Source: a virus
Direction: 5' to 3' (one strand)
IMG/VR virus record: IMGVR_UViG_3300025000_000061
Coordinates: 64,001 to 128,000 of that record
Length of the DNA stretch: 64,000 nucleotides
The notes under the pieces were generated by a model, which was not told where the DNA came from, ran no database searches, and saw nothing but the letters and a program-made list of their open reading frames with translations. A program made the translations under genes and the position numbers. This document shows, in pieces, positions 4,339 through 43,013 of this stretch; position 1 is the first letter of the stretch, and each line of letters opens with the position of its first letter.

Positions 4339-4367
4339 TTGACAAATAGTTAACAGAATGATAAAAT
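4339..4367 (+). promoter_or_regulatory. Sigma-A promoter (extended -10)
   Basis: TTGACA-17-TAAAAT with AGAATGA before the -10. Confidence 0.8.
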
Positions 4368-4389
4368 AATAAAAGGAGGATAATTATTT

Positions 4390-25711: not shown

Positions 25712-26695
25712 ATGAACAATTATAAACTTATGGAAGAATATATTCAATGGAGAAAAGATACTGGTAAATTTAGACATGAATTAAGAGATATAATTGTAAA
25801 TGATAATGGTGTAATTAAAACAGAGAAGAAGATGGCATGTGTTATAAATACTTCACCTGAAGATTGGAAAGAGTTTTGTGAAGATAGAGATATAGAATAT
25901 GAAGGTGAAATGAAATTGTTGGCAATGTGTTAGTATGTAGAAAATCTTGACAAATTATCAATAGTAATTACTATATGTAGTATTAAAAATATATAAAAAT
26001 ACTACATATAGTAATAATATCATGATCAAATTCCTCTTTTATATTAACTTGAAAGGAGAATTATGAAAAAATTATTAATCATTTCTTTACTAACTACTTT
26101 TTTATTAACTGGGTGTGGTATGTCTAATAGTAATAATACAAAACAAATGGCATATTTTAAAGATACAGGTGTTGTTATAAAAGATTCAATGGATAGAGAA
26201 TACCATATAATTAAAGACCCAAATGATTATTTGTATTTTCGTACTGATGTAGTATATTATAGTATTTCGCCTGTATTAGATAAAGATGGTAAATATACAA
26301 AAGATATAAATACAATTAAAGAGATGTACAGAATAGAAAAATAAAAAGGAGAAAAAATACATATGATAACTCAATTACCATGTGGCTGTTCAACTATACC
26401 TATCAATAAATTTGCTAAAGTTAAAGAAATATTATTAGCAGGAAAAGCAATTATAACTGATAATCCAAATTATGAAGAATCAGAAATAGTTATGTTCCAA
26501 TTAAAAGATGGAAATGTATTTTCAGTAGTTATGTTTTCAGATGATACTCAAGGAACTGTTAATTTTGATATGAAAAAAGCATTAAATGTTTGTAAAGAAT
26601 TATGGGATGATGGTTATGATTTTTGCTATGGAGAGCATATGAATTTTGTTATTGGTGAAGAAAGTAAAGATAAGAAAGATGAAAATAATAGTTGA
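25712..26695 (+). CDS. Hypothetical genes 25712-25933, 26063-26344 (lipoprotein) and 26363-26695
   Basis: 26063 has signal peptide MKKLLIISLLTTFLLTGC with a lipobox. Confidence 0.7.
25968..26014. promoter_or_regulatory. Paired NrdR-box-like palindromes
   Basis: TTACTATATGTAGTAT and ATACTACATATAGTAA, 31-bp period. Confidence 0.6.
26020..26047. repeat. 28-bp 11-6-11 boundary site
   Basis: TCATGATCAAA-TTCCTC-TTTTATATTAA. Confidence 0.7.
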
Positions 26696-26714
26696 CAGAA
26701 TGATAAAATAATAG

Positions 26715-26743
26715 TTGACAGATTGTAAATAAAAATGTATAAT
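26715..26743 (+). promoter_or_regulatory. Sigma-A promoter for the ligase-macrodomain-PARP operon
   Basis: TTGACA-17-TATAAT. Confidence 0.85.
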
Positions 26744-26772
26744 ATGATTAAATTAAAAAAGGAGGTTATAAT

Positions 26773-28101
26773 TTGCAAGAAATATTAAGTATTGTTAATC
26801 AATTAGCAAGTACATCTAGTCGTTTAGAAAAAGAATCTATTTTAAAGAGAAATCAAGATAATCAATTATTCAAAGACATTCTTACATTCGTTTATAATAC
26901 TTTAGAAGTAAAAACAGGTATTAAACGTAAAAAACTTGAGAAGAAAGTAAAATCTAAACCAACAGTAACTATGAATAATTTTTATGATTTAAGAGATTAT
27001 TTATCTAATCATAATACTGGTTCAGATGAAATAATTGCAAATATTCAACAATTTTTATCTCAGCAAGAAGATAATATAAAAGAATTATATATTCAAATTA
27101 TTCTTCAAGACCTACGTTGTGGTTTAAAAGAAAAAACTATTAATAGTGCCTTTGGATATGAATTTATTTATATCCATAAATTAGAGAAAGGAGAAGTAGC
27201 AGAAGAAAAACATCTTAAATGGCTTAAAAGTAAAGAATTTGGTATATATAGAAAGTTAGATGGGTATAGAAGTGAAATTGAAGTAGGTAATAATAAGGTT
27301 AAGATAATGTCCTCTGGTGGTGAAATATATAAAGAATTAGTCGATATTGAAAAAGTATTATCTGAAACTGATTTACCACATGGAGTATTTGTTTGCGAAT
27401 TATTAGCAGTAGATGATAATAATACAATGTCTAGAATAGAAAGATTTAATAAAACTGGTTCTATTTTAAGAAAAGATGGAGAAAAGCATGGAATAGAAGT
27501 TAATATATTTAATTTTATTCCTGATGACGGATTTTATAAAGGTTATCATCCTATGACTTGTAGAGATAGAAAGAATCTAGCAAAAAAATTGATTGATAAG
27601 ATTAATTCTCCTTTGATTAAAAATATTGATCCTTTCTATATTGGAAAAGATATTGCTCAAATTGATTATTGGTTTGAAAAAATGATGGATCAAGATGATG
27701 AGGGAATTATGGTTTTGCCTTTAGATGCAAAATATTATGGTAAAAAATCATATCAACAAATGTTAAAGGTTAAGACAGAAAAAGAAGCTGATGTGGTTAT
27801 AGTTGGTTTTGAAAAAGGTGAAAAAGGTAAGGAATTTGAAAATACTTTAGGTAAAATAATTGTAGATTATAAAGGTAAACCAGCAAAAGTAATGTGTGGT
27901 TATAAAGTAAAATATAATCCAGATAAATATGATAATAGGATGGTTAGAGATTATATTTGGAATCATCAAGATGAATTGATGGGTAAAATTGTTAAGGTAA
28001 GATATACAGATGAAAATGTTAATGAAAAAGGTGAATTGGATTTAAGATTATGTAGATTGATTGAGTATAGAGATGATAAGAGTGAACCGAGTTATAATTA
28101 A
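26773..28101 (+). CDS. ATP-dependent DNA ligase
   Basis: KLDGYR (motif I), EGIMV, LKVK, C-terminal OB fold ending RDDK. Confidence 0.93.
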   Translation: MQEILSIVNQLASTSSRLEKESILKRNQDNQLFKDILTFVYNTLEVKTGIKRKKLEKKVKSKPTVTMNNFYDLRDYLSNHNTGSDEIIANIQQFLSQQEDNIKELYIQIILQDLRCGLKEKTINSAFGYEFIYIHKLEKGEVAEEKHLKWLKSKEFGIYRKLDGYRSEIEVGNNKVKIMSSGGEIYKELVDIEKVLSETDLPHGVFVCELLAVDDNNTMSRIERFNKTGSILRKDGEKHGIEVNIFNFIPDDGFYKGYHPMTCRDRKNLAKKLIDKINSPLIKNIDPFYIGKDIAQIDYWFEKMMDQDDEGIMVLPLDAKYYGKKSYQQMLKVKTEKEADVVIVGFEKGEKGKEFENTLGKIIVDYKGKPAKVMCGYKVKYNPDKYDNRMVRDYIWNHQDELMGKIVKVRYTDENVNEKGELDLRLCRLIEYRDDKSEPSYN

Positions 28102-28130
28102 CAATAAATAAATTAAAAGGAGGAAATATT

Positions 28131-28550
28131 ATGATTATTAAAGAAGAACAAAGGGATTTATTTTCAGTACCACATGGTTATTATTTTGCTCATTGTATCT
28201 CAGGAGATTTTGCATTAGGTGCAGGTATTGCAGTTAAATTTAACGAGTTATATAATATGCGTAAAAAATTAAAAGAAGTCACAGATTTTGAATATGATAA
28301 TTGTGCAATTCTTATTGATAATGTATTTAATCTTGTAACAAAACGAAGATCATTTCATAAACCTACATATGATAGTTTAAATGAAGCATTAGTAGATATG
28401 ATGGAACAAGTTAAAGAATTAGGTGTTGAAAGAATTGCTATGCCTTTTATCGGATGTGGACTAGATAAACTTTCTTGGAGTATTGTTAAGGAAATGATTG
28501 AAGAAGTATTTGAAGATGTTGATGTTGAAATTTTAGTTTGTTATTTATAA
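28131..28550 (+). CDS. TARG1/OARD1-type (DarG-related) macrodomain ADP-ribose glycohydrolase
   Basis: DLF, AHCIS.D..LGAGIA, LVTK, HKPTY, MP.IGCGLD.L.W; the catalytic Lys/Asp positions of TARG1 are present. Confidence 0.9.
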   Translation: MIIKEEQRDLFSVPHGYYFAHCISGDFALGAGIAVKFNELYNMRKKLKEVTDFEYDNCAILIDNVFNLVTKRRSFHKPTYDSLNEALVDMMEQVKELGVERIAMPFIGCGLDKLSWSIVKEMIEEVFEDVDVEILVCYL

Positions 28551-28563
28551 GAGAGGTGGATAT

Positions 28564-29778
28564 ATGCAAAATCCATTATATTTAGTTAAAGTAGAACCAG
28601 GAGAAAATAATAATAAATATTACCAAATGCTGGATAACGGCGATGGAAATTTTATTTGTAAATATGGTAGAATTGGCAATTCAGGTTATCAGACAAAAAC
28701 TTATCCTATATCTAAATGGGAATCTCAATATAAAAGTAAGATAAAAAAGGGTTATATAGACCAGTCAAGATTAGTTGCGGAAACTATTGTTACTCAAAAT
28801 AAGAAAAAAGAATACCTTGATATTGACAATCCATCTATAGCACAAATTGTAACAAGATTACAATCTATGGCACGACAAGCAATTAAGGATAATTATACTA
28901 TTAATTCTCAGAATGTTACGCAGGTTATGATCAACGAAGCACAGTTAATTTTAAATAATCTAATTGATGCAGATGATATTGAATTATTTAATAAAATACT
29001 AGTTGATTTATTTAAAACTATCCCTAGAAAAATGGGTAAAGTTAAAGATTATTTAGCAAAAAGTGATAAAGATTTTAGTGAGATTATTCAAAGAGAACAA
29101 GATTTACTTGATGTAATGAAAGGTCAAGTTGTTCAACAATCTATAGTTAAAGATGAAAATAATGAAGATGATACATATGAAATGCCAAATCAAACAATAT
29201 TAGAAGTATTAGGATTACAATTTGAAGAAATTACTCAAGATGAAAAAGAATTAATTAAGAAAAATCTTGGTGGTATTAGTGATAAATTTTATCAAGCATG
29301 GAGAGTTATTAATATTAAGACACAAAAGAAATTTAATGAGTTTATACAGAATAATAATATAAAAGAAAATAAATTATTATGGCATGGATCAAGAAACGAG
29401 AATTGGTGGAGTATTATTAATTCAGGATTAGTTTTAAGACCATCTGCTGTAATCACAGGCAAGATGTTTGGATATGGTATTTATTTTGCACCTAAAGCAA
29501 GAAAGTCATTTGGTTACACTTCTTATCATGGTTCATATTGGGCAGGAGGAAATTCTAATTCTGCATTTATGAGTTTATATGATGTAGCATATGGCAAACC
29601 TTACGATGTACATTCTTTTGATAGTCAATATCATAATTTTAACTATGAGTTATTACAAAAGTATTGTAAAGATGCTAATTGTCTACATGCTCATGCTGGA
29701 AGTATGCTTAGGAATGATGAGATTATAGTTTATAAAGAAGAACAAACTACTATTAAGTATTTAGTTGAATTGAGGTAA
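28564..29778 (+). CDS. PARP-family ADP-ribosyltransferase (WGR, helical and catalytic domains)
   Basis: NNNKYY...YGRIG WGR domain; LWHGS, GKMFGYGIYFA, NDEIIVY give a complete H-Y-E triad. Confidence 0.92.
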   Translation: MQNPLYLVKVEPGENNNKYYQMLDNGDGNFICKYGRIGNSGYQTKTYPISKWESQYKSKIKKGYIDQSRLVAETIVTQNKKKEYLDIDNPSIAQIVTRLQSMARQAIKDNYTINSQNVTQVMINEAQLILNNLIDADDIELFNKILVDLFKTIPRKMGKVKDYLAKSDKDFSEIIQREQDLLDVMKGQVVQQSIVKDENNEDDTYEMPNQTILEVLGLQFEEITQDEKELIKKNLGGISDKFYQAWRVINIKTQKKFNEFIQNNNIKENKLLWHGSRNENWWSIINSGLVLRPSAVITGKMFGYGIYFAPKARKSFGYTSYHGSYWAGGNSNSAFMSLYDVAYGKPYDVHSFDSQYHNFNYELLQKYCKDANCLHAHAGSMLRNDEIIVYKEEQTTIKYLVELR

Positions 29779-29850
29779 TATGATTGGTCGGATTGTTGAG
29801 TAAGGTATAATCAAGGGTGAAATAATAAAAATAAATAATAAAATTCACCC

Positions 29851-29879
29851 TTGACAAATATATAAAATACTAATATAAT
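29851..29879 (+). promoter_or_regulatory. Sigma-A promoter for the replication operon
   Basis: TTGACA-17-TATAAT; the -35 overlaps inverted repeat TCAAGGGTGAA/TTCACCCTTGA. Confidence 0.85.
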
Positions 29880-31390: not shown

Positions 31391-32548
31391 ATGGCAACTG
31401 CAAGAAAAGGTGGCAAAGTTCAAAGTAAAATTCAAATGTTATTGTTTGGACTTCAAGGATCAGGGAAAAGTACTATTGCATCACAATTTTTATATTTAAA
31501 ACGTCCAGATGGAAAACCATTAAGAGTTTTATATTTAGATGGAGAATCTGGCTCAATTGACGATATGCTTGAAGCAATAGAAAATGATAATATAAATTTA
31601 GAAAATTTATATATTGTTTATACTCAATCATTAAAAGAAGTAAATCAATACATAGAAAAAGCAACAAAAAAAGAACCATTTTATGAACTTGATGATAAGG
31701 GAAAAGAAGATTTTGACAAAATGATATTAGATGCAGATGGTGAACAATTTATACCAGATGCTATTGTTGTTGATGGAACGTCAGTTTTAAATTTGGCAGT
31801 AAAACAAGGTATAATTGAATTTAGTAAAAAAAGAGCAAATGTTAAAGCAGAAAGAGATAAATTACTAGGTGAAGAAAAATTCGTAAAAGTTGAAGGAGCA
31901 GGTATTGAATTAAAAGACTATAATACCATTAATTTTAAAGGACAAGATTTAGTATTAACCTTAACTGGAAGTGGATTGCATTATATTGTTACTGCCAGAG
32001 AAGTTGATGAAAAAATATCTATTAAAGATTCTGAAGGGAAAATTACTTCTATTTCAACTGGTAAAAAGATACCAGAAGGATTTAAAGGTATGGGATATAA
32101 TGTAAAAACAGAAATGAGATTGTTTAGAGAAGAAGATGATATGGAGTTAGTTAAAGCACATGTTATTAAAGACAGAACTAAAACATATCAAAACGGTGAA
32201 ATAGTAGAAGACCCTTCATTGTTTGCTTTTCAAACAGTAATTGATAAAACTAAAGATCATAAAGATGTTGTTGTGCAAAATAGATTGCATGATGCTATTA
32301 AACAAGAATTAAAAGAGACTGAAAAAGAAATATTGGGTAACGAAATTGACGAAGAAACAATTGACAAAAATAATATTGATGATATTGAAATATTAAAAAA
32401 TCAATTAATGGATAAATTAAAGTCCTTAAGTCCTAAAGAAAAGGAAACTGCTAAAGAAAAACTTAGAGTTAAGGGATTACCTATTAGTTTTAAAAGTGTA
32501 ACTAATATAGATATTATTAAAAATGCTTTGTTAGTAATGGAAGAATAG
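31391..32548 (+). CDS. AAA_24/Sak4-like P-loop ATPase (recombination)
   Basis: GLQGSGKS, LDGESGS, IVVDG, TARE, KDRT. Confidence 0.8.
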   Translation: MATARKGGKVQSKIQMLLFGLQGSGKSTIASQFLYLKRPDGKPLRVLYLDGESGSIDDMLEAIENDNINLENLYIVYTQSLKEVNQYIEKATKKEPFYELDDKGKEDFDKMILDADGEQFIPDAIVVDGTSVLNLAVKQGIIEFSKKRANVKAERDKLLGEEKFVKVEGAGIELKDYNTINFKGQDLVLTLTGSGLHYIVTAREVDEKISIKDSEGKITSISTGKKIPEGFKGMGYNVKTEMRLFREEDDMELVKAHVIKDRTKTYQNGEIVEDPSLFAFQTVIDKTKDHKDVVVQNRLHDAIKQELKETEKEILGNEIDEETIDKNNIDDIEILKNQLMDKLKSLSPKEKETAKEKLRVKGLPISFKSVTNIDIIKNALLVMEE

Positions 32549-34669: not shown

Positions 34670-35713
34670 ATGGATATAAAAAGATTAAAACAATATATTT
34701 TCAACAATAATAAAGTAGATTATATTCTTTCACAAATTGGTTGTAAAAATATTGTTAGACATAATGATTATTATACATGTGCAAATTATGATGGAGATAA
34801 TACTAAGGCTATATGTCAATATTTTAATTCTGAATATCTGAATTGTATAAATTATACTAGAGATATTAAATACAATAAGACAAATAATCATTCAACTAGT
34901 ATAATAGACCTTGTTTGTTACAATAAAAAAATAAATATTTTTCAATGTGTTAAATATCTTTGTGATATTTTGGGATTAGATTATTATGAAATGGAAAACG
35001 AGGATGATATACCTGAAAGTTTAAAAATGCTTCAAATGCTTTATGATATGAAATCTGGTGAATATATTGAAGAAAATTATAAATTACAACCAATAAGTGA
35101 AAAAATACTTAAATATTATAAACCGTATGTTAATGATATGTTTGCTAATGACAACATATCTTATGAAATACAAAAATATTTTGAAATAGGTTATGACGAT
35201 GAAACTAATTATATAACTATTCCTATTAGAGATGAACTTGACAATTTGGTAGGAGTAAAAGGAAGATATTTTGGAAATAACAATGAAGTTGAAAATAAAT
35301 ATATTGCATTAGAAAGATATGCGAAATCAAAAATATTATATGGATTAAATAAATCAATTAGACATATAAAAAATAGTGGAAAATGTTATATTTTAGAGGC
35401 TGAAAAATCAGTAATGAAATTATTTGGTTATGGATATTTAAATTGTGTTTCAATAGGAGGGCATCAAATATCAAGAACACAATTAAATAAGTTAGTAGGT
35501 ATGTGTATTGATATTATAATTTGTTTCGATAAAGATGTAGAAAAAAATATTATATTAAATGAATGTAAAAAAATAAAAGAAAAAGGAGTAAATAAAGTAT
35601 TTTATTTATTAGACAAAGATAATATTTTAGAAGAAAAAGAAGCACCATGCGATGATCCAAAAAGGTGGGAAATATTATTACATAATAATATTTACGAATA
35701 TAAAGAAAATTAA
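34670..35713 (+). CDS. DNA primase (TOPRIM)
   Basis: IPIRD...VGVKGR, LYGL, EAEKS, FDKD. Confidence 0.85.
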   Translation: MDIKRLKQYIFNNNKVDYILSQIGCKNIVRHNDYYTCANYDGDNTKAICQYFNSEYLNCINYTRDIKYNKTNNHSTSIIDLVCYNKKINIFQCVKYLCDILGLDYYEMENEDDIPESLKMLQMLYDMKSGEYIEENYKLQPISEKILKYYKPYVNDMFANDNISYEIQKYFEIGYDDETNYITIPIRDELDNLVGVKGRYFGNNNEVENKYIALERYAKSKILYGLNKSIRHIKNSGKCYILEAEKSVMKLFGYGYLNCVSIGGHQISRTQLNKLVGMCIDIIICFDKDVEKNIILNECKKIKEKGVNKVFYLLDKDNILEEKEAPCDDPKRWEILLHNNIYEYKEN

Positions 35714-35729: not shown

Positions 35730-37487
35730 ATGGATTATATACTTATAGGGAATAATGATATACATAATATTAAAGAGACAATATTAAAAAATCGTGGTAT
35801 TAAAGATATTGATACATATTTAAATTTAAATCAAAATGTACTTTATGATTATTCATTATTAGATAATATAAACAAAGGAGTAGAATTATTAAAAAAAATA
35901 ATAGAAAATAAATTACCTATATATATAGTAGTTGATTGTGATCCTGATGGGTATTGTAGTGCAAGTATTTTATATGATTATATAAAAACAAATTTAAATT
36001 ATACAAATTTAATATATATATTACAAGAAGGCAAAAAACATGGATTATCAAAAGAAGTAATGAATATTTTATTAGCAGAAGATCAGAAAATAGGATTAAT
36101 AGTATTACCAGATGCAGGTACAAATGATATAAAACAATGCAAAGAATTATTTGATATTGGTTATAGTATTTTAATTTTAGACCATCACCAAAAGGAAGAA
36201 GATAATTCATTCGCCATTGTCATAAATAATCAAGCATGTGATTATCCAAATAAAAATTTATGTGGGGCAGGAATTGTATATAGATTTTTATGTGCTTTAG
36301 ATGATGAATATTGGTTATCAAATGCCAATGATTATATTGATTTAGTTGCTTTAGCTAATATATCAGATGTTATGGATTTAAGAGAATGTGAAACTAAATA
36401 TTTAGTTGATACTGGATTAAATAATATAGTCCATCCTTTATTTTTAGCATTGTTAAATAGACAAAATTATAGTATTAAAAATATAGAATTTCCAACAATT
36501 AATGATATTTCTTTTTACATAACTCCTTTAATAAATGCAATGATAAGAATTGGTACGAAAGACGAAAAAGATTTAATGTTTAAAGCATTTATTAAAGAAT
36601 ATGATGAATTTGAATACAAACCTAGAAAATCAAAAAATAATCCAGAACCAACAATAATTATGGAATCAATTTATGATAGAGTTGCTAGATTTTGTATAAA
36701 TAATAAAAGTAAGCAAGCAAAAATACAAAATAAAAGTGTAGATGAAATATTAACTGTTTATGATGAAAGTAATAAAGTAAATTCAATTTGTTTTATTAAT
36801 GCTACTAAATTTGAAAATGTATCTAAAGATTTAACTGGTCTTATTGCAATTAAAATAGCAGATAAATATAGTAAACCTTGTCTAATATTAAGAAAAGATA
36901 AATATAAAAGTAATGATAGTGACATAATTTTTAGTGGAAGTGCTAGAAATATTAATGATAGTTTTATAGAAGATTTAAAATCTGAACTTGAAAACAGTAG
37001 TTTATTTGAGTCATGTACTGGACATTCTAATGCCTTTGGTACTTCAATTAAAAAAGATAATATACCTATAGCAATACAATATTTTAATAATAAATTTAAT
37101 AATATAAGTAATATAAAAACTCATAAAGTAGATTTTATTTTTGATAAAAATATAAATTATAAAGTAATTAAAGATATATATAGTATTAAACATTTATTTT
37201 CAGGATTTTTAAAAGAACCATTAATAGTAATTGAAAATATTAATGTAGATTTAATGAGTTTCGATATATTTGGTAGTGATGAAAAAAAACATTGGAAATT
37301 TCAAAATGATGTAATTGAATACATAAGATTTAATGTACCAGAAAATGATGAGATGCTTTTATTAGACACTTTTACTTATAGTAATATAATAATGAATATT
37401 ATAGGAAAAACAAATATTAATGTATATGGAAGTAAAACAACACCACAATTTATTATTCAAGATTATATGATTATTAATAAAGAATAG
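35730..37487 (+). CDS. recJ: RecJ-like ssDNA exonuclease (DHH family)
   Basis: DCDPDG, LDHH, DLVAL..ISD, SGSAR, GHSNAFG. Confidence 0.9.
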   Translation: MDYILIGNNDIHNIKETILKNRGIKDIDTYLNLNQNVLYDYSLLDNINKGVELLKKIIENKLPIYIVVDCDPDGYCSASILYDYIKTNLNYTNLIYILQEGKKHGLSKEVMNILLAEDQKIGLIVLPDAGTNDIKQCKELFDIGYSILILDHHQKEEDNSFAIVINNQACDYPNKNLCGAGIVYRFLCALDDEYWLSNANDYIDLVALANISDVMDLRECETKYLVDTGLNNIVHPLFLALLNRQNYSIKNIEFPTINDISFYITPLINAMIRIGTKDEKDLMFKAFIKEYDEFEYKPRKSKNNPEPTIIMESIYDRVARFCINNKSKQAKIQNKSVDEILTVYDESNKVNSICFINATKFENVSKDLTGLIAIKIADKYSKPCLILRKDKYKSNDSDIIFSGSARNINDSFIEDLKSELENSSLFESCTGHSNAFGTSIKKDNIPIAIQYFNNKFNNISNIKTHKVDFIFDKNINYKVIKDIYSIKHLFSGFLKEPLIVIENINVDLMSFDIFGSDEKKHWKFQNDVIEYIRFNVPENDEMLLLDTFTYSNIIMNIIGKTNINVYGSKTTPQFIIQDYMIINKE

Positions 37488-37497
37488 GATGTGAAAT

Positions 37498-40400
37498 ATG
37501 TCAAGTAGTTTACATAATCACTCTATGTACAGTCTCCAAGATGCTTTCGGTACTCCAAAAGAAATGTTAGATAGAGCAAAGGAAATAGGATTAAAAGCAT
37601 TTGCTATCACAGAGCATGGTAATGCTTATTCTTGGGTATATTTTGATAAAATAAAAAAAGAATATCCTAAAATTAAAATTATTTATGGTGTAGAATTTTA
37701 TGAATGTTTTAATATAAATATTAAAGATAAAGATAATAAATATTTTCATTTAATTGCTCTTGCAAAAAATGAACAAGGTAGAAAATCATTAAATGAATTA
37801 ATTACTAGAAGTGAATTTGAAGGTAAATATTATAAACCTAGAGTAGATTTAAATATGTTAAAAAATCATGCAGAAAATTTAATTATATTAAGTGCATGTT
37901 TAGCAAGTAAAATATCTAGAGAAAATGATTATGATAAATGTATAGAATACATTAAAGAATATAAAAGTATTTTTCCATATTTTTATTTAGAAATGCAATC
38001 TCATAAACATGTTGATCAAGAAAAGTATAATCAAAAAATACTTAAACTATCACAAGATACAAATACTCCTTTTACAATCACAACAGACAGTCATGTTGCT
38101 ATTAAAGAACATCTAAAATATCAGGCAAGACATGTGCAAATTGCAAGAGATGCAGATACTATTTCTGAATCTTACGAAGGTTGTTATATACAATCAGATG
38201 AAGAAATTCATGAAATTATGGATAGTCAAATTGGTAAAGAAAATGTTGAATTAGGTTTAAAAACTTCTGATGATATAGCAGATTTAATTGAAATAGTAAG
38301 TATGCCATTTCAAGAACCTCAATTGCCAACATTTCCTTTACCAGATGGATTTAAAACTAATAAAGAATATCTTCAACATTTAACGCAAATTGGTTGGATT
38401 AATAGAAAATATGACAAACGAACAACAAAAGAACAAGAAGTAAGAAAAGAAAGACTGGAATATGAGTTGGATATTATAGATAAAATGGGATATTGCGGAT
38501 ATTTTCTTATAGTATGTGATTATATTAATTTCTGTAAAGAAAATAATTATCCTATTGGTTCGAGAGGTTCAGCAGGTGGAAGTTTGGTATGTTATTTATT
38601 AGGTATTTCTACTTTAGATCCAATTGATTATAATTTGATTTTTGAAAGATTTTTAAATCCAGAAAGAGTATCAATGCCTGACATAGACCTCGATTTTGCA
38701 TATAAAGAAAAAGTTATTGAATATTTAATGCAAAAATATGGTGAATTAAGAGTGTGTCAAGTATTAAATTTAGCATCAATAACACCTGTAGTAGCAATTA
38801 AAGATGTTGGAAGAGTATTAAAAGATGAAAATGGGAAACCACTTATATCTAGTGCGACAATAAATAGTATAAGTAAATTGTTTACTGAAAAAGAATTTGA
38901 TAAATGTATGGAAATTAATGATACTGCCATAAAAAAATATACTAGTGAAATTTATAATGAATTATTTGATATTGCAAAAATGTTAAGTGGCAGAATAAGA
39001 CATGTTTCAACTCATGCAGGAGGAGTTGGAATTGTTGATACTTCAATATTTGATTATATGCCAATGAAATTAGGAGATAAAGGAGAACATGTAATTCAAG
39101 TTGATAAAGTAATGATAGAAGAAATAGGTATCATTAAATTTGATATTTTAGGATTAAATACACTTGTAATTATTGATGGTGTTAAAAAACGTGTTGGACT
39201 TAGTGATTGGGATATAGACCCTAATAATCTAGAATTTTTACATGATGAAAAAATGTATCAATTGCTACAAAGTGGAAAAACAAATAATGTATTTCAAGTT
39301 GAATCGCAAGGAATGAAAGATTTATTATTAAGACTTAAACCAACGTCATTAGAAGATATTTCAGCAGTTTTAGCACTATATCGTCCAGATAGTATGAGTT
39401 ATTTAGAAGATTATATTTATTATAAACACCATCAAGATGAAATTAGATATATACATGAAGATATGATACCAATATTAAAAACTACTAATGCTCAAATGAT
39501 TTATCAAGAGCAATTAATGGAAATAGTAAGAACATTTGGTGGAAGAACATATGGTGGTAGTGACAAATTTAGAAAGGGGATCGGTAAAAAAGACCCCGAA
39601 CTTGTTAAAAAAGAATCTGATAAATTATATGAAGAAATAATAAACAATAATTATGATGAAAAAATAGCTAAAATAATTAGTGATGATTTACGTTCTAAAG
39701 GATCTTATATGTTTAACAAATCGCATTCCGCATTATATGGTGTCACTACACTTCAAACAGCATATTTAAAAGCACATTATCCAGTTGAATTTTATTGTGA
39801 AGTATTTAATGCTTGTGAAGGTAATAATGGTAAACTTAACAAATATTTAGTTGAAGCACAGGAATTAAATATTAAAGTTTTACCTCCACATATAAATAAA
39901 TCAGATTATAAGTTCAATGTTCATGATGGACAAATATTATTTGGTCTTAATTCTATAAATCAAGTTGGAGAAAAAATTGTAGAAAATATTATAGAAGAGC
40001 GTAGTAATGGTAAATATGAAGGTTTAGATAATTTTATGAATAGAGTATTAAATATTTCAATTGCACAATTAGTAATGTTAATTAAATCTGGTGCATTACC
40101 AACAAAAAATAAAAATAATATGTTATTAAGATGTGCTGATAGATATACACAATCAGAAAAAGAATATAAATCTTATACAGATGTTAAAAGTTTACCTTCA
40201 TTACTAGAATTAAAAACAAAATGGGGTATAGATACAGATACTATTAAAGATAAACAAGAAAGACTAGTATTATATAATCAAAAAAGAAAGATAGAACATG
40301 AAACAATAAAATATCAAGAATGGATAAAAAAAATAAATGATAATAAAAAAGAAGCAATAGAAATATTTAAAAATAAGTATATGCAAAATGAACAGTTTTG

Positions 40401-40773
40401 GGAATTCGAAGCACTATCTATTTTTCTTAGTGATAATCCTTTTGTTGATATTGTTCAATATAATAATGAAAATTTTTATGAATGTGAAAATGGTGATGAA
40501 TGTGTAATTATAGGTATTATTTCAAGAATACAAAAGAAAAAAGATAGACATAAAAGAGATTATGCTTATATAAATGTATATGAAAGCAATGGATTATTAG
40601 AAGGTATTGCTTGGTCAAGTGTTTATTCTAAATATATTGATTTAATAAAAAAGAATAATAAACTTGCTTTTTATTCAGAAAAATCTAGTGATGATAATTT
40701 TATTATTAAAAAAATAAAAACAATTAATGAATGGATTAATGATAGAAAATTACATAATGTAATTAATATTTAA
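37498..40773 (+). CDS. dnaE: DNA polymerase III alpha subunit (PHP + Pol C family)
   Basis: LHNHS PHP domain, RGSAGGS, PDIDLD, KFDILGL, FNKSH, C-terminal OB fold. Confidence 0.96.
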   Translation: MSSSLHNHSMYSLQDAFGTPKEMLDRAKEIGLKAFAITEHGNAYSWVYFDKIKKEYPKIKIIYGVEFYECFNINIKDKDNKYFHLIALAKNEQGRKSLNELITRSEFEGKYYKPRVDLNMLKNHAENLIILSACLASKISRENDYDKCIEYIKEYKSIFPYFYLEMQSHKHVDQEKYNQKILKLSQDTNTPFTITTDSHVAIKEHLKYQARHVQIARDADTISESYEGCYIQSDEEIHEIMDSQIGKENVELGLKTSDDIADLIEIVSMPFQEPQLPTFPLPDGFKTNKEYLQHLTQIGWINRKYDKRTTKEQEVRKERLEYELDIIDKMGYCGYFLIVCDYINFCKENNYPIGSRGSAGGSLVCYLLGISTLDPIDYNLIFERFLNPERVSMPDIDLDFAYKEKVIEYLMQKYGELRVCQVLNLASITPVVAIKDVGRVLKDENGKPLISSATINSISKLFTEKEFDKCMEINDTAIKKYTSEIYNELFDIAKMLSGRIRHVSTHAGGVGIVDTSIFDYMPMKLGDKGEHVIQVDKVMIEEIGIIKFDILGLNTLVIIDGVKKRVGLSDWDIDPNNLEFLHDEKMYQLLQSGKTNNVFQVESQGMKDLLLRLKPTSLEDISAVLALYRPDSMSYLEDYIYYKHHQDEIRYIHEDMIPILKTTNAQMIYQEQLMEIVRTFGGRTYGGSDKFRKGIGKKDPELVKKESDKLYEEIINNNYDEKIAKIISDDLRSKGSYMFNKSHSALYGVTTLQTAYLKAHYPVEFYCEVFNACEGNNGKLNKYLVEAQELNIKVLPPHINKSDYKFNVHDGQILFGLNSINQVGEKIVENIIEERSNGKYEGLDNFMNRVLNISIAQLVMLIKSGALPTKNKNNMLLRCADRYTQSEKEYKSYTDVKSLPSLLELKTKWGIDTDTIKDKQERLVLYNQKRKIEHETIKYQEWIKKINDNKKEAIEIFKNKYMQNEQFWEFEALSIFLSDNPFVDIVQYNNENFYECENGDECVIIGIISRIQKKKDRHKRDYAYINVYESNGLLEGIAWSSVYSKYIDLIKKNNKLAFYSEKSSDDNFIIKKIKTINEWINDRKLHNVINI

Positions 40774-40787
40774 AGGAGAGTGAAATT

Positions 40788-43013
40788 TTGAGTTTTATTA
40801 TTAAAGGTTATATTTCTAGACAACAACCATTTTTTCAAAAAGGATCATTTAAAATGTATGGTTTTTGTCCTAATGATACATATTTAGATAAAGTATCTTT
40901 GTCTGATTATGGTAATATTACTATAAAAGGTGAATTACCATCATTAGTTGAAGGTAAAGAATATAAAATAGAAGTAGAATATGAGAAAAAAGGTCAATAT
41001 GAAAGTTATATTGTTAAAAGATTTTTAAATAATCCTATGGATATGAATGAAAACGAAGCATTTAATTTCTTATCAGAACTTGTTGGTATTAATTTAGCAG
41101 ATAATATATTAAGAGCATATCCTGATTTTATAAAATTAATAATACAAGGAAAAGAAAATGAAATTGACACTAGTAAAATTTACGGAGTGGGAGAAGCTGT
41201 TTTAAAAAGAATAAGTAACAAGATTAATCAAAATATTTTGTTTTACAATATAATTAGTGAATATAAAGAATATGAATTAACCTTAAACCAAATTCAAAAA
41301 ATATATGATGCATTTAATTCCTTTGATTTATTAAAAGAGAAAATGAATGAAAACCCATATCAATGTTTATGCTCAATAGCAGGTATTGGATTTACGATAG
41401 CAGATAATAAAATATTAAATAAAAACAAATCATTAATTAAATCAAGATATAGAATGGCAGAATGTATTATGTGTATATTAGAACAAAATGAAGAAAAAGG
41501 ACATACATGGATTAAATCAAATGAATTATATTCTGAATGTAGTAAGTTAACTCCACAATGTATGCAAGAATTTAAAGGTGTACTAGAACATAATGATAAA
41601 ATTTATTATGATATAGAAAATAAAAAAGTATCAAAAAAACAAACATATTACTGTGAAAAAGAAATAGCAGAGCGAATAATGAACATATCATTAAATCCAA
41701 GAGAATTAGATATTGATTATAGTAAGTATAATATGATTGGAGATATTAAATTAACTGATAAACAGATATTATCTTTAGAATATACTTGTAAATATAATTT
41801 TTATATATTGGCAGGATTTGCCGGTGGAGGCAAGACCTTTAGCACAAATGCTTTACTTGATATGCTGGATGATAATAATTATTCATATATACTATTAACT
41901 CCCACAGGCAAAGCAGCTAAAAATTTCTATAAAAATACAAATCGTCCAGCAAGTACAATACATCGTGGATTAGGTTTTAATCCAGCAGAAGGATTTATTT
42001 ATAATGAAAAAAATAAATTACCTTATGATTTTATTATTGTAGATGAGGCAACGATGATTGATGTGTATTTAATGAGAAGTTTATTAAGAGCAGTAAATGA
42101 AAAACATAGTAAATTAATATTTATTTGTGATCCGGCTCAAATACCTAGTGTTGGTTGTGGCAATTGTATTCAAGATATAATTAACAGTAATATATTCCCC
42201 ACTATTTTTTTAGATAAAGTATTTAGATATAAAGATGGTGGATTAGCAAAAATTGCCACTGATACAAGAAATGGAAGTAGTTTTTTGAATGATGATGGGA
42301 TACAAAAATTTGGTGACGATTTTATTTTTATATCAACTTTAAAAGATACATTAGTAGATAAAATAATTAGTGCATATAAAAAAATGCAAAATAAGGGTGG
42401 TTCTGTAGATGACATTATAATCATATCTGCATATAATGTTGGCGATTATGGTACATATAAAATAAATTCACTGATTCAAGATTTAGTTAATCCTTCAAAT
42501 GGTAAAATGGAATTAAGTTATACAAGAAAAAAATTTGAAATTAAATTTAGAGAAAATGATAGAGTGATGCAAATAGTTAATAATTATAAAGCACCTATTT
42601 TTGAACATGAAGATCAAACAAAAAATAAAGAAGAATATACTGTTGTATTCAATGGTGATGATGGACGAATAATAAAAATAGGAGTAAATAAAAAAGGCCA
42701 AAAATATATGGTTGTTGATTTTGATGGACAATATGTTATATATAGAAACGATGATATATATGATTTACTATTAAGTTATTCAATTTCTGCTCATCGTGCT
42801 CAAGGTTCAGGTTATCCATATGTTATAGCTATTACTCCACCAACACATAAATTTTTTTTAAATAGAAATTTATTATATGTAATATATACTAGAACTAAAG
42901 AATTTATGTATAATATTGGTACAATTGATACAATTGACTGTGCATTAAAGAAAAGTGAGAATTTAAATAGGAAAACTCATTTGAAAGAATTGTTAATAAG
43001 ATTAAATACATAA
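40788..43013 (+). CDS. RecD2-like SF1B helicase
   Basis: GFAGGGKT, TIHR, VDEA, Q..SVG, HRAQGS, LLYV..TR; HhH-like IYGVG and GIGF. Confidence 0.9.
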   Translation: MSFIIKGYISRQQPFFQKGSFKMYGFCPNDTYLDKVSLSDYGNITIKGELPSLVEGKEYKIEVEYEKKGQYESYIVKRFLNNPMDMNENEAFNFLSELVGINLADNILRAYPDFIKLIIQGKENEIDTSKIYGVGEAVLKRISNKINQNILFYNIISEYKEYELTLNQIQKIYDAFNSFDLLKEKMNENPYQCLCSIAGIGFTIADNKILNKNKSLIKSRYRMAECIMCILEQNEEKGHTWIKSNELYSECSKLTPQCMQEFKGVLEHNDKIYYDIENKKVSKKQTYYCEKEIAERIMNISLNPRELDIDYSKYNMIGDIKLTDKQILSLEYTCKYNFYILAGFAGGGKTFSTNALLDMLDDNNYSYILLTPTGKAAKNFYKNTNRPASTIHRGLGFNPAEGFIYNEKNKLPYDFIIVDEATMIDVYLMRSLLRAVNEKHSKLIFICDPAQIPSVGCGNCIQDIINSNIFPTIFLDKVFRYKDGGLAKIATDTRNGSSFLNDDGIQKFGDDFIFISTLKDTLVDKIISAYKKMQNKGGSVDDIIIISAYNVGDYGTYKINSLIQDLVNPSNGKMELSYTRKKFEIKFRENDRVMQIVNNYKAPIFEHEDQTKNKEEYTVVFNGDDGRIIKIGVNKKGQKYMVVDFDGQYVIYRNDDIYDLLLSYSISAHRAQGSGYPYVIAITPPTHKFFLNRNLLYVIYTRTKEFMYNIGTIDTIDCALKKSENLNRKTHLKELLIRLNT

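Follow-up and report, generated by a model that had tools for sequence, protein, structure and literature searches.

The stretch of DNA considered here, referred to throughout as the window, comprises 64,000 nucleotides (bases 64001-128000) of IMG/VR virus record IMGVR_UViG_3300025000_000061, which derives from a large phage (151.8 kb, 82% complete, approximately 24% G+C) whose host is a gut-type member of the Clostridia. At the head of its DNA-replication genes lies a unit of three genes encoding an ATP-dependent DNA ligase, a macrodomain of the type of human TARG1 (also called OARD1) and a compact PARP, and a survey of related loci identifies the macrodomain-PARP pair as the conserved core of the locus. 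The unit and its flanking signals, all on the plus strand, are as follows.

26690 and 26713, plus strand: duplicated AGTTGACAGA element
26715..26743, plus strand: sigma-70 consensus promoter ahead of the ligase gene, a 12/12 match to TTGACA-17-TATAAT
26773-29778, plus strand: the three-gene unit ligase-macrodomain-PARP
26773..28101, plus strand: ATP-dependent DNA ligase of the T4/phage type, 442 residues, with an N-terminal DNA-binding domain
28131..28550, plus strand: TARG1/OARD1-type macrodomain, a single domain of 139 residues
28564..29778, plus strand: compact PARP of 404 residues, WGR-helical-ADP-ribosyltransferase (ART)
29813..29851, plus strand: inverted repeat AGGGTGAA / TTCACCCT after the PARP stop codon, with 8-bp arms and a 23-nt A+T loop, read directly from the sequence
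29851..29879, plus strand: second perfect sigma-70 consensus promoter, after the PARP stop codon, opening the next unit

Perfect sigma-70 matches are rare in the window (four observed in 64 kb, 0.11 expected), and because two of them, at 26715 and 29851, flank the three genes, these can be regarded as a promoter-bracketed unit. The genes are separated by 29 nt (ligase to macrodomain) and 13 nt (macrodomain to PARP) and each has its own Shine-Dalgarno sequence, that of the ligase gene being an AGGAGG which precedes a TTG start codon. A scan for intrinsic terminators detected none for the unit, and the inverted repeat beyond the PARP gene, the 3' arm of which abuts the -35 element of the promoter at 29851, does not have the form of a canonical terminator. 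Immediately ahead of the ligase promoter a 25-nt element, AGTTGACAGAATGATAAAATAATAG (26690-26714), repeats the -35 region of that promoter and may be an operator or a second promoter; another copy, with two mismatches, lies at 4348-4372.

The PARP is composed of a WGR domain (residues ~5-67), a helical regulatory domain (~90-240) and an ART domain (~242-403) carrying the triad H274/Y307/E386, and on these features of sequence and model it is best classed as a predicted clade-1 (PARP1/2/3-type) enzyme. The Pfam models PARP (2.2e-23) and WGR (8.3e-6, above cut-off) both match, and PARP_reg gives no score at E<=0.01 on this protein. HMMER matches to PARP2 and PARP1 range from 9e-13 (PARP2, 6usj) to 3e-12, and residues 135-322 align to a PARP1 catalytic fragment that takes in the helical domain. 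The motifs HGS (H274-G275-S276), GKMFGYGIYFAPKARKSFGY and DEIIVY are present, the WGR motif itself reads YGR, and the HMMER alignments with PARP1 and PARP2 have in common NNNKYY and the GR of the WGR domain, LLWHGS, ITGxMFGxGIYFA...KS..Y and E-I-I-V-Y. In an alignment of 54 representatives (37-54% identity) the residues H274, G275, G299, G303, Y307, K314, Y318 and E386 are invariant, and G35 and R36 of the WGR motif are retained in at least 90% of the family. An AF2 model of the protein (pLDDT 92.3, pTM 0.88) consists of a beta-rich N-terminal domain, a helical middle (helices 90-110, 120-134, 139-152, 168-197 and 225-241) and an ART domain, and the top Foldseek matches of this model are to the WGR-helical domain (HD)-ART portion of PARP1 bound to a double-strand break (4dqy_C and 4opx_C, E ~1e-20, TMq 0.66-0.67, ~470 aligned columns), with PARP2 bridging a DNA break (6x0l_P) also matched; identity to the human enzymes is ~16-21%. 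PARP3 uses the arginine of its WGR motif to sense the 5'-phosphate at a nick (PMC4992063), and the PARPs of Herpetosiphon and Clostridioides difficile CD160, which have the same architecture, perform DNA-dependent auto-PARylation in vitro (PMC5966428).

The macrodomain matches human TARG1/OARD1 (4j5r, 2eee and also 2l8r) at E 2.5e-26 over residues 8-137, with other solved macrodomains matching at 2.4e-7 or worse; the Pfam Macro model scores 1.2e-5, above cut-off. It contains the motifs HCISGD, TK, HKPTY and MPFIGCGLDKLSW, and the catalytic pair K71 (VTK) and D112 (GCGLD) aligns with the TK and GCGLD of TARG1, the human catalytic pair being Lys84 and Asp125 (PMC8120803). Among 87 macrodomains from related loci, K71 is retained in 84 and D112 in 60. 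Human TARG1 removes glutamate- and aspartate-linked ADP-ribose as well as the ADP-ribose that PARP3 places on phosphorylated DNA ends (PMC5725667).

The identity of the ligase is equally well founded. Pfam DNA_ligase_A_M matches at 7.5e-11, with DNA_ligase_A_N just below its cut-off, phrog_114 matches at 1.3e-71, and the best solved relative is 6rau (1e-15, residues 7-420), T4 ligase (6dt1) matching too. Motif I, KxDGxR, is intact (K161-x-D163-G164-x-R166), and 10 divergent ATP ligases encoded beside a PARP, 25-81% identical to that of the window, all retain K161, G164 and R166. A preliminary description of this DNA, made from the sequence alone, had named a consensus promoter at 26715, an ATP-dependent ligase, a macrodomain close to TARG1/OARD1 and a PARP with a WGR domain, helical linker, H-Y-E triad and PARP1 motifs, and all of these, along with its assignment of the unit to a phage, are borne out: the promoter by its perfect match, the ligase by the agreement of Pfam, phrog_114, 6rau and motif I, the macrodomain by a full-length match with every quoted motif and the catalytic pair in place, and the PARP by the concurrence of Pfam with the AF2 model and Foldseek. 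The same description called the module eukaryote-like, which is true of the sequences and misleading as to rarity. The compact PARP family comprises 667 clusters at 50% identity (E<=1e-30) and the macrodomain family 1704 clusters at 90% identity, against the 72 PARPs and about thirty TARG1 sequences that a review had counted in bacteria (PMC8120803). Recent transfer from a eukaryote to the phage was considered as an origin and is unlikely given the size and depth of these prokaryotic and viral families.

Conservation was surveyed in 95 loci, 80 of them on viral contigs and 15 on contigs of bacterial genomes or metagenome-assembled genomes (MAGs), with PARPs 38-90% identical to that of the window; macrodomains were detected with a family hidden Markov model (HMM), and four loci were too truncated to judge, leaving 91 that are informative. 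The macrodomain gene lies directly upstream of the PARP gene in 75 loci (gap -16 to +27 nt, mostly 9-13 nt), upstream with an insert of 0.4-1.3 kb in 10 and downstream in one, and it is absent, with flanking DNA present, in five. The macrodomain thus accompanies the PARP in 86 of the 91 informative loci (~95%), a count of loci and not of independent events, since many of the contigs are near-copies of one another. Among the 10 loci with inserts (L005, L024/25, L065, L068-70 and L090 are examples of extra sequence between the two genes), eight hold 0.8-1.3 kb of additional DNA, and the apparent gap in the other two (L008 and L009) is due to an in-frame stop in the PARP gene. This single stop, at codon 104 (Arg in the window), occurs in one lineage (L008:5935-7164 and L009) in which the gene is intact apart from it, at 83% identity, and is either a nonsense mutation or an assembly error. 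Elsewhere, HNH-AP2 and GIY-YIG homing-endonuclease genes adjoin the PARP gene (L023:1796-2512 and L021:2300-3079).

For the loci that have no macrodomain, Pfam found no alternative erasers. In two of them homologous open reading frames (ORFs) of 156 and 193 residues (38% identity) directly follow the PARP gene (L085:9210-9680 and L026:2498-3079); both have a C-terminal GIAKC...KIAYNRA motif, neither has a solid Pfam match, and they may represent an alternative partner. The ORFs that follow the PARP genes of Cellulophaga phage phi4:1 (gp030) and Klebsiella phage FBKp34 (gp112) were considered as hidden macrodomains, an idea that Pfam, BLASTP and the family HMM do not support, and they show no homology to the post-PARP ORFs of L085, L026 and L097.

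Where carriers are named, they belong for the most part to the Clostridia, among them Oscillospiraceae, Lachnospiraceae, Ruminococcus sp. YE282 and Lacrimispora amygdalina, and carriage as a provirus or prophage is seen in one viral record classed as a provirus (G001) and in the isolates of Ruminococcus sp. YE282 and Lacrimispora amygdalina. PARP-bearing, phage-like contigs have also been binned to distant phyla (L097, a Candidatus Nanoarchaeia MAG; L093, Absconditabacterales; L088, Treponema), labels that are probably binning artefacts or phage contigs and do not give the true hosts. Scans of viral contigs with two distant PARP representatives, P0239 and the N-terminally extended P0156, returned no matches.

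The intimacy of the pair bears on what the macrodomain acts upon. One alternative holds that it is chiefly an anti-defence eraser, removing DarT-type ADP-ribose from DNA or other host-made marks or signals, with the PARP having a separate role. TARG1 is able to reverse DarT adducts (PMC8120803, PMC8501950), lone TARG1-like macrodomains occur in cultured phages devoid of a PARP, and the protein does match DarG models (PADLOC 7.5e-15; NCBIfam 1.7e-12, 47 bits against a 250-bit cut-off). The PADLOC match is limited to macrodomain residues 64-136, that is, positions 70-142 of a 329-position model, and the protein, at 139 residues, is missing the DarG C-terminal domain and has a ligase and a PARP as its neighbours; it is not a DarG antitoxin. 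Because macrodomain and PARP are very seldom found apart in this phage group, the typical gap being 9-13 nt, the main substrate of the macrodomain is argued to be the product of the PARP, and a chiefly anti-defence function is considered quite unlikely. A search of the genome for DarT gave no match, and its controls were silent too, so that the result is uninformative. PADLOC defence-system models match neither the PARP nor the ligase, and the suggestion in the preliminary description that the unit counters restriction or CRISPR nicks, DarTG or other defences based on nicotinamide adenine dinucleotide (NAD) finds no support in the present analysis.

The wider surroundings of the pair are those of DNA replication and recombination. 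In the window a Rv2179c-like 3'-5' exonuclease is encoded upstream of the unit, and the unit that begins at the promoter at 29851 encodes a 90-residue ORF and a 329-residue ORF followed by these genes.

31391-32548: AAA_24/RadB-like (RecA-like) ATPase
34670-35713: DnaG-like primase
35730-37487: DHH-family protein
37498-40773: DnaE
40788-43013: RecD2-type helicase

In the related loci DnaE recurs near the pair (46 loci), as do genes for an ERCC4 nuclease, NrdD, ThyX, guanylate kinase and a PAPS-reductase-like protein. Consistently surrounded by genes of replication and nucleotide metabolism such as DnaE, primase, ERCC4 and NrdD, the pair is taken to belong to a replication/recombination module. 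The 82% complete record contains no gene of the NAMPT/NAPRTase family and no second macrodomain. Other neighbours are more sporadic. In 18 loci the gene after the PARP encodes a PAPS-reductase-domain protein (e.g., L040:9691-10611), an SPFH/Band 7 protein is encoded directly upstream of the macrodomain in one (L032:6440-7390, plus strand), and the same contig encodes a Thg1-like tRNA-His guanylyltransferase (L032:12017-12832, 1.9e-30). In a 205-kb relative, ~1.8 kb downstream of the PARP, lies the gene for an 805-residue protein (L064:10995-13412, plus strand) with a Pfam MVP_shoulder match (6.5e-13) and a weak Vault repeat, a curious neighbour in that eukaryotic vaults carry PARP4.

This setting, together with the architecture of the PARP, also bears on the idea that the enzyme serves in host take-over, ADP-ribosylating host proteins or acting in counter-defence, with the macrodomain protecting phage components or tuning the modification and the position in the replication module being incidental. 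Iyer, Aravind and co-workers proposed that the PARPs of jumbo phages act on host proteins in the manner of phage ARTs (PMC7824862), phages commonly use ARTs in this way (PMC8120803), and the strong host-type promoter ahead of the unit fits early or middle expression. A constitutive, host-modifying ART would need neither a WGR domain with its conserved arginine nor an autoinhibitory helical domain, and yet both are retained; replication genes neighbour the pair in essentially all loci, and PADLOC has no match for the PARP. Host take-over is on balance unlikely.

The explanation we favour, tentatively and at a little less than an even chance, is that the unit operates as a cycle in which nicks and 5'-phosphorylated breaks are sensed and the resulting mark erased, tied to the replication and sealing of phage DNA. 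The ligase, macrodomain and PARP would be co-transcribed from the strong host-type promoter, and the helical domain would keep the PARP inactive until its WGR domain engages a nick or break bearing a 5'-phosphate in phage DNA that is undergoing replication or recombination. The sites sensed might be Okazaki fragments awaiting ligation and the nicks that nucleases or recombination leave behind, the same sites that are substrates for ligase. Once active, the PARP would use NAD+ to ADP-ribosylate its own acidic residues, the DNA end or gap, or both, so that the lesion is marked or shielded; the TARG1-like macrodomain would then strip the glutamate/aspartate-linked and DNA-linked ADP-ribose, resetting the sensor and freeing the 5'-phosphate, and the ligase could seal the nick after removal of the mark. 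Each of these steps has precedent: PARP3 mono-ADP-ribosylates terminal DNA phosphates, with TARG1 among the enzymes that reverse the modification (PMC5725667), and in human cells ADP-ribose on DNA is found at unligated Okazaki fragments, where the writer is PARP1, the eraser is TARG1 and the mark increases when LigI or FEN1 is depleted (PMC11102865). The identities of the genes and the conservation of the pair are observed directly in this analysis, and it is the dependence on DNA, the substrates, the choice between mono- and poly-ADP-ribosylation and the coupling to the ligase that we infer.

A related proposal shares much of this chemistry and assigns it a different purpose, namely that ADP-ribose placed by the PARP on phosphorylated ends, whether of linear phage DNA or replication intermediates, serves as a cap against host exonucleases, and that the macrodomain uncaps those ends before ligation or circularisation. 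The adduct that PARP3 forms on terminal DNA phosphates is phosphatase-resistant and its discoverers suggest that it protects against nucleases (PMC5725667), and the link to ligase is compatible with such a role. The argument is purely one of analogy, however, and the PARP is not known to be present in the virion, so that incoming DNA would have unprotected ends until the enzyme is made. End-capping is held to be distinctly improbable.

The part of the ligase in the sensor-eraser cycle can be judged from the survey. A ligase gene adjoins the pair in 32 of the 95 loci (about a third), an ATP-dependent enzyme in 14 and NAD-dependent LigA in 18; in the latter the gene directly upstream of the macrodomain encodes a 660-residue LigA with adenylation, OB and BRCT domains. 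The 14 rows with an adjacent ATP ligase on the PARP tree (a quick maximum-likelihood IQ-TREE tree) include the window, its clade relatives, L087, L021, L097 and Cellulophaga phi4:1; in L021 and L097 the ligase lies on the downstream side of the PARP. The tree calls for at least four changes in adjacency for the NAD-dependent class and at least seven for the ATP-dependent class. Within the 21-row clade of the window both classes are found in the same slot and were therefore swapped in situ. In Cellulophaga phage phi4:1 (L001, 4989-8035) and in L097 (8001-10975) the PARP is followed by one small ORF and then by an ATP-dependent ligase; the intervening ORFs, of 154 or 180 residues, are not detectably macrodomains and are not homologous to each other. 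Because the two ligase classes share a slot, and because the distant phi4:1 and L097 show this PARP-ORF-ligase order, the association with ligase is judged to be above chance, and the fact that either class can fill the slot suggests that it is the sealing function, and not a specific protein contact, that is associated.

Several observations nonetheless weigh against the proposed cycle, and some of them loosen its tie to the ligase. In 11 of the 95 loci a ligase is encoded within 8 kb without being adjacent and in 52 there is none within 8 kb, and all five complete relatives that have no adjacent ligase encode a LigA 12-36 kb from the PARP and no ATP ligase. The pair therefore needs no adjacent ligase, and since relatives without adjacency keep a distant LigA, the ligase is better seen as the general nick-sealing enzyme of the phage, often parked beside the pair; the adjacency could be ordinary clustering within a replication module. 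A ligase as obligate third partner can be set aside, being away from the pair in most relatives. Among 33 larger viral records that have no adjacent ATP ligase, a single weak match to an enzyme of this class was seen (E 7.9e-5, covering 84 of 425 model positions), and no NAD-dependent ligase was found in the 82% complete record of the window. Of the earlier proposal that the three genes make up a break-sensing writer, eraser and ligase repair unit, the pairing of writer and eraser is borne out by co-conservation, and a ligase is beside them in part of the loci. Further difficulties concern the pair itself. The position two residues before the catalytic glutamate, occupied by tyrosine in PARP2 (Tyr986 in PARP1), is a nearly invariant asparagine in the phage family, which makes the ability to form chains uncertain. 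The position of D112 is Asn or Gly in 24 of the 87 related macrodomains. TARG1-like macrodomains are present in the PARP-less cultured phages Bacillus phage G, LP65, LpeD, Fnu1-3 and LC76P1, so the eraser can have uses that are independent of a PARP, and the stop codon of L008 and L009, if a true mutation, means that the PARP is dispensable at least in that lineage. A literature search found no functional study of any phage PARP.

The ligases carried alongside the pair are relevant to a last alternative, in which the pair is a prophage module for abortive infection or exclusion: the free DNA ends of a superinfecting phage would activate the PARP, leading to depletion of NAD+ or PARylation of targets, and the macrodomain would act as a safety catch in the style of a toxin-antitoxin system. 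Some relatives are indeed carried in proviral or prophage form (G001, Ruminococcus sp. YE282 and Lacrimispora amygdalina), and the eraser-first gene order resembles that of antitoxin-toxin operons. Many carriers, however, rely on an NAD-dependent ligase, in 18 loci one encoded immediately beside the pair, so that depletion of NAD+ would harm the phage itself and is disfavoured as the purpose of the system; moreover, the pair is co-oriented with and embedded in lytic replication genes, not in a moron or lysogeny region, and the PARP has no PADLOC match. Such a module is highly improbable.

Returning to the sensor-eraser cycle, a more ambitious form of it, which we regard as unlikely yet worth stating, is that in large phages of the Clostridia a PARP2/3-like sensor marks 5'-phosphorylated nicks and gaps on nascent DNA, a TARG1 orthologue clears the mark and a ligase seals the nick, this being the counterpart, and possibly the evolutionary source, of the surveillance of Okazaki fragments by human PARP1 and TARG1. 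Signalling of DNA breaks by PARPs is usually seen as a eukaryotic invention and the prokaryotic relatives as rare curiosities of unknown function. It is clear from the present survey that the compact PARP is a very large family, and that one big group of phages of the Clostridia couples it tightly, inside the replication module, to an eraser of the human TARG1 type, often with a nick-sealing ligase alongside. If the pair acts on nicked replicating DNA, break-activated ADP-ribosylation and its removal could be studied in a minimal, genetically tractable system of three proteins, prokaryotic PARPs would gain a first physiological role, and there would be a concrete candidate for where the eukaryotic PARP/TARG1 system came from. 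The cultured hosts Ruminococcus sp. YE282 and Lacrimispora amygdalina, which carry such prophages, are possible experimental entry points.

Elements of this locus have been noted before. PARPs were recognized in Aeromonas phage Aeh1 and Cellulophaga phage phi4:1 (PMC4245714) and in a few jumbo phages (PMC7824862), viral TARG1-like proteins were likewise recorded (PMC4245714), and phage PARPs are already annotated in GenBank records. A search of the full-text literature returned no description of a conserved phage TARG1-PARP pair, of its place in a replication module or of its link to two classes of ligase, and the conserved pairing and the ligase link thus appear to be undescribed in the literature searched. 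The annotated phage PARPs of Cellulophaga phi4:1, Aeromonas Aeh1, Klebsiella FBKp34 and Xanthomonas XacN1 are homologous WGR-PARPs, 24-33% identical to that of the window for those recovered, and phi4:1 resembles the window in having a ligase near its PARP, one gene away. They differ in that no TARG1-like macrodomain is detectable directly beside the PARP, FBKp34 having a weak macrodomain 2.4 kb upstream, and within the cultured-phage collection no record is among both the PARP matches and the TARG1-like macrodomain matches.

Comparison with cellular systems is instructive. The phage PARP has the domain order, H-Y-E triad, matching motifs and predicted fold of human PARP2 and PARP3 and of the WGR-HD-ART core of PARP1; unlike these it is phage-encoded, is compact at 404 residues, has no zinc fingers, BRCT domain or N-terminal tail, reads YGR at the WGR motif and has Asn in place of Tyr before the catalytic glutamate, and it is known here from its sequence and a model. 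The PARPs of Herpetosiphon aurantiacus and C. difficile CD160 are, like the phage enzyme, compact proteins of WGR, regulatory and catalytic parts (PMC5966428, PMC8120803). The likeness is one of architecture, and whereas the erasers described in those papers are the cellular PARG and MacroD, the phage encodes a TARG1-type macrodomain directly upstream of its PARP within a replication module. Human TARG1 (OARD1/C6orf130) is, like the phage macrodomain, a single small domain; the match between the two is full-length, and the catalytic Lys and Asp are retained. The Fusobacterium mortiferum TARG1 demonstrates that bacterial members can de-MARylate and de-PARylate (reverse mono- and poly-ADP-ribosylation) and deacetylate O-acetyl-ADP-ribose (OAADPr) (PMC8120803); its context is one of polymorphic toxins and immunity, whereas the partner of the phage macrodomain is a PARP. 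DarT-DarG also places an ART writer beside a TARG1-like macrodomain eraser, and the phage pair departs from it in that the writer belongs to the PARP family and carries WGR and helical domains, the macrodomain is without the DarG C-terminal domain and the genes reside in a lytic replication module. A further parallel, by analogy of parts and context only, is the cycle of PARP1 and TARG1 at human Okazaki fragments, in that the phage possesses homologues of both its writer and its eraser, together with an ATP-dependent ligase, in one transcription unit within its replication module.

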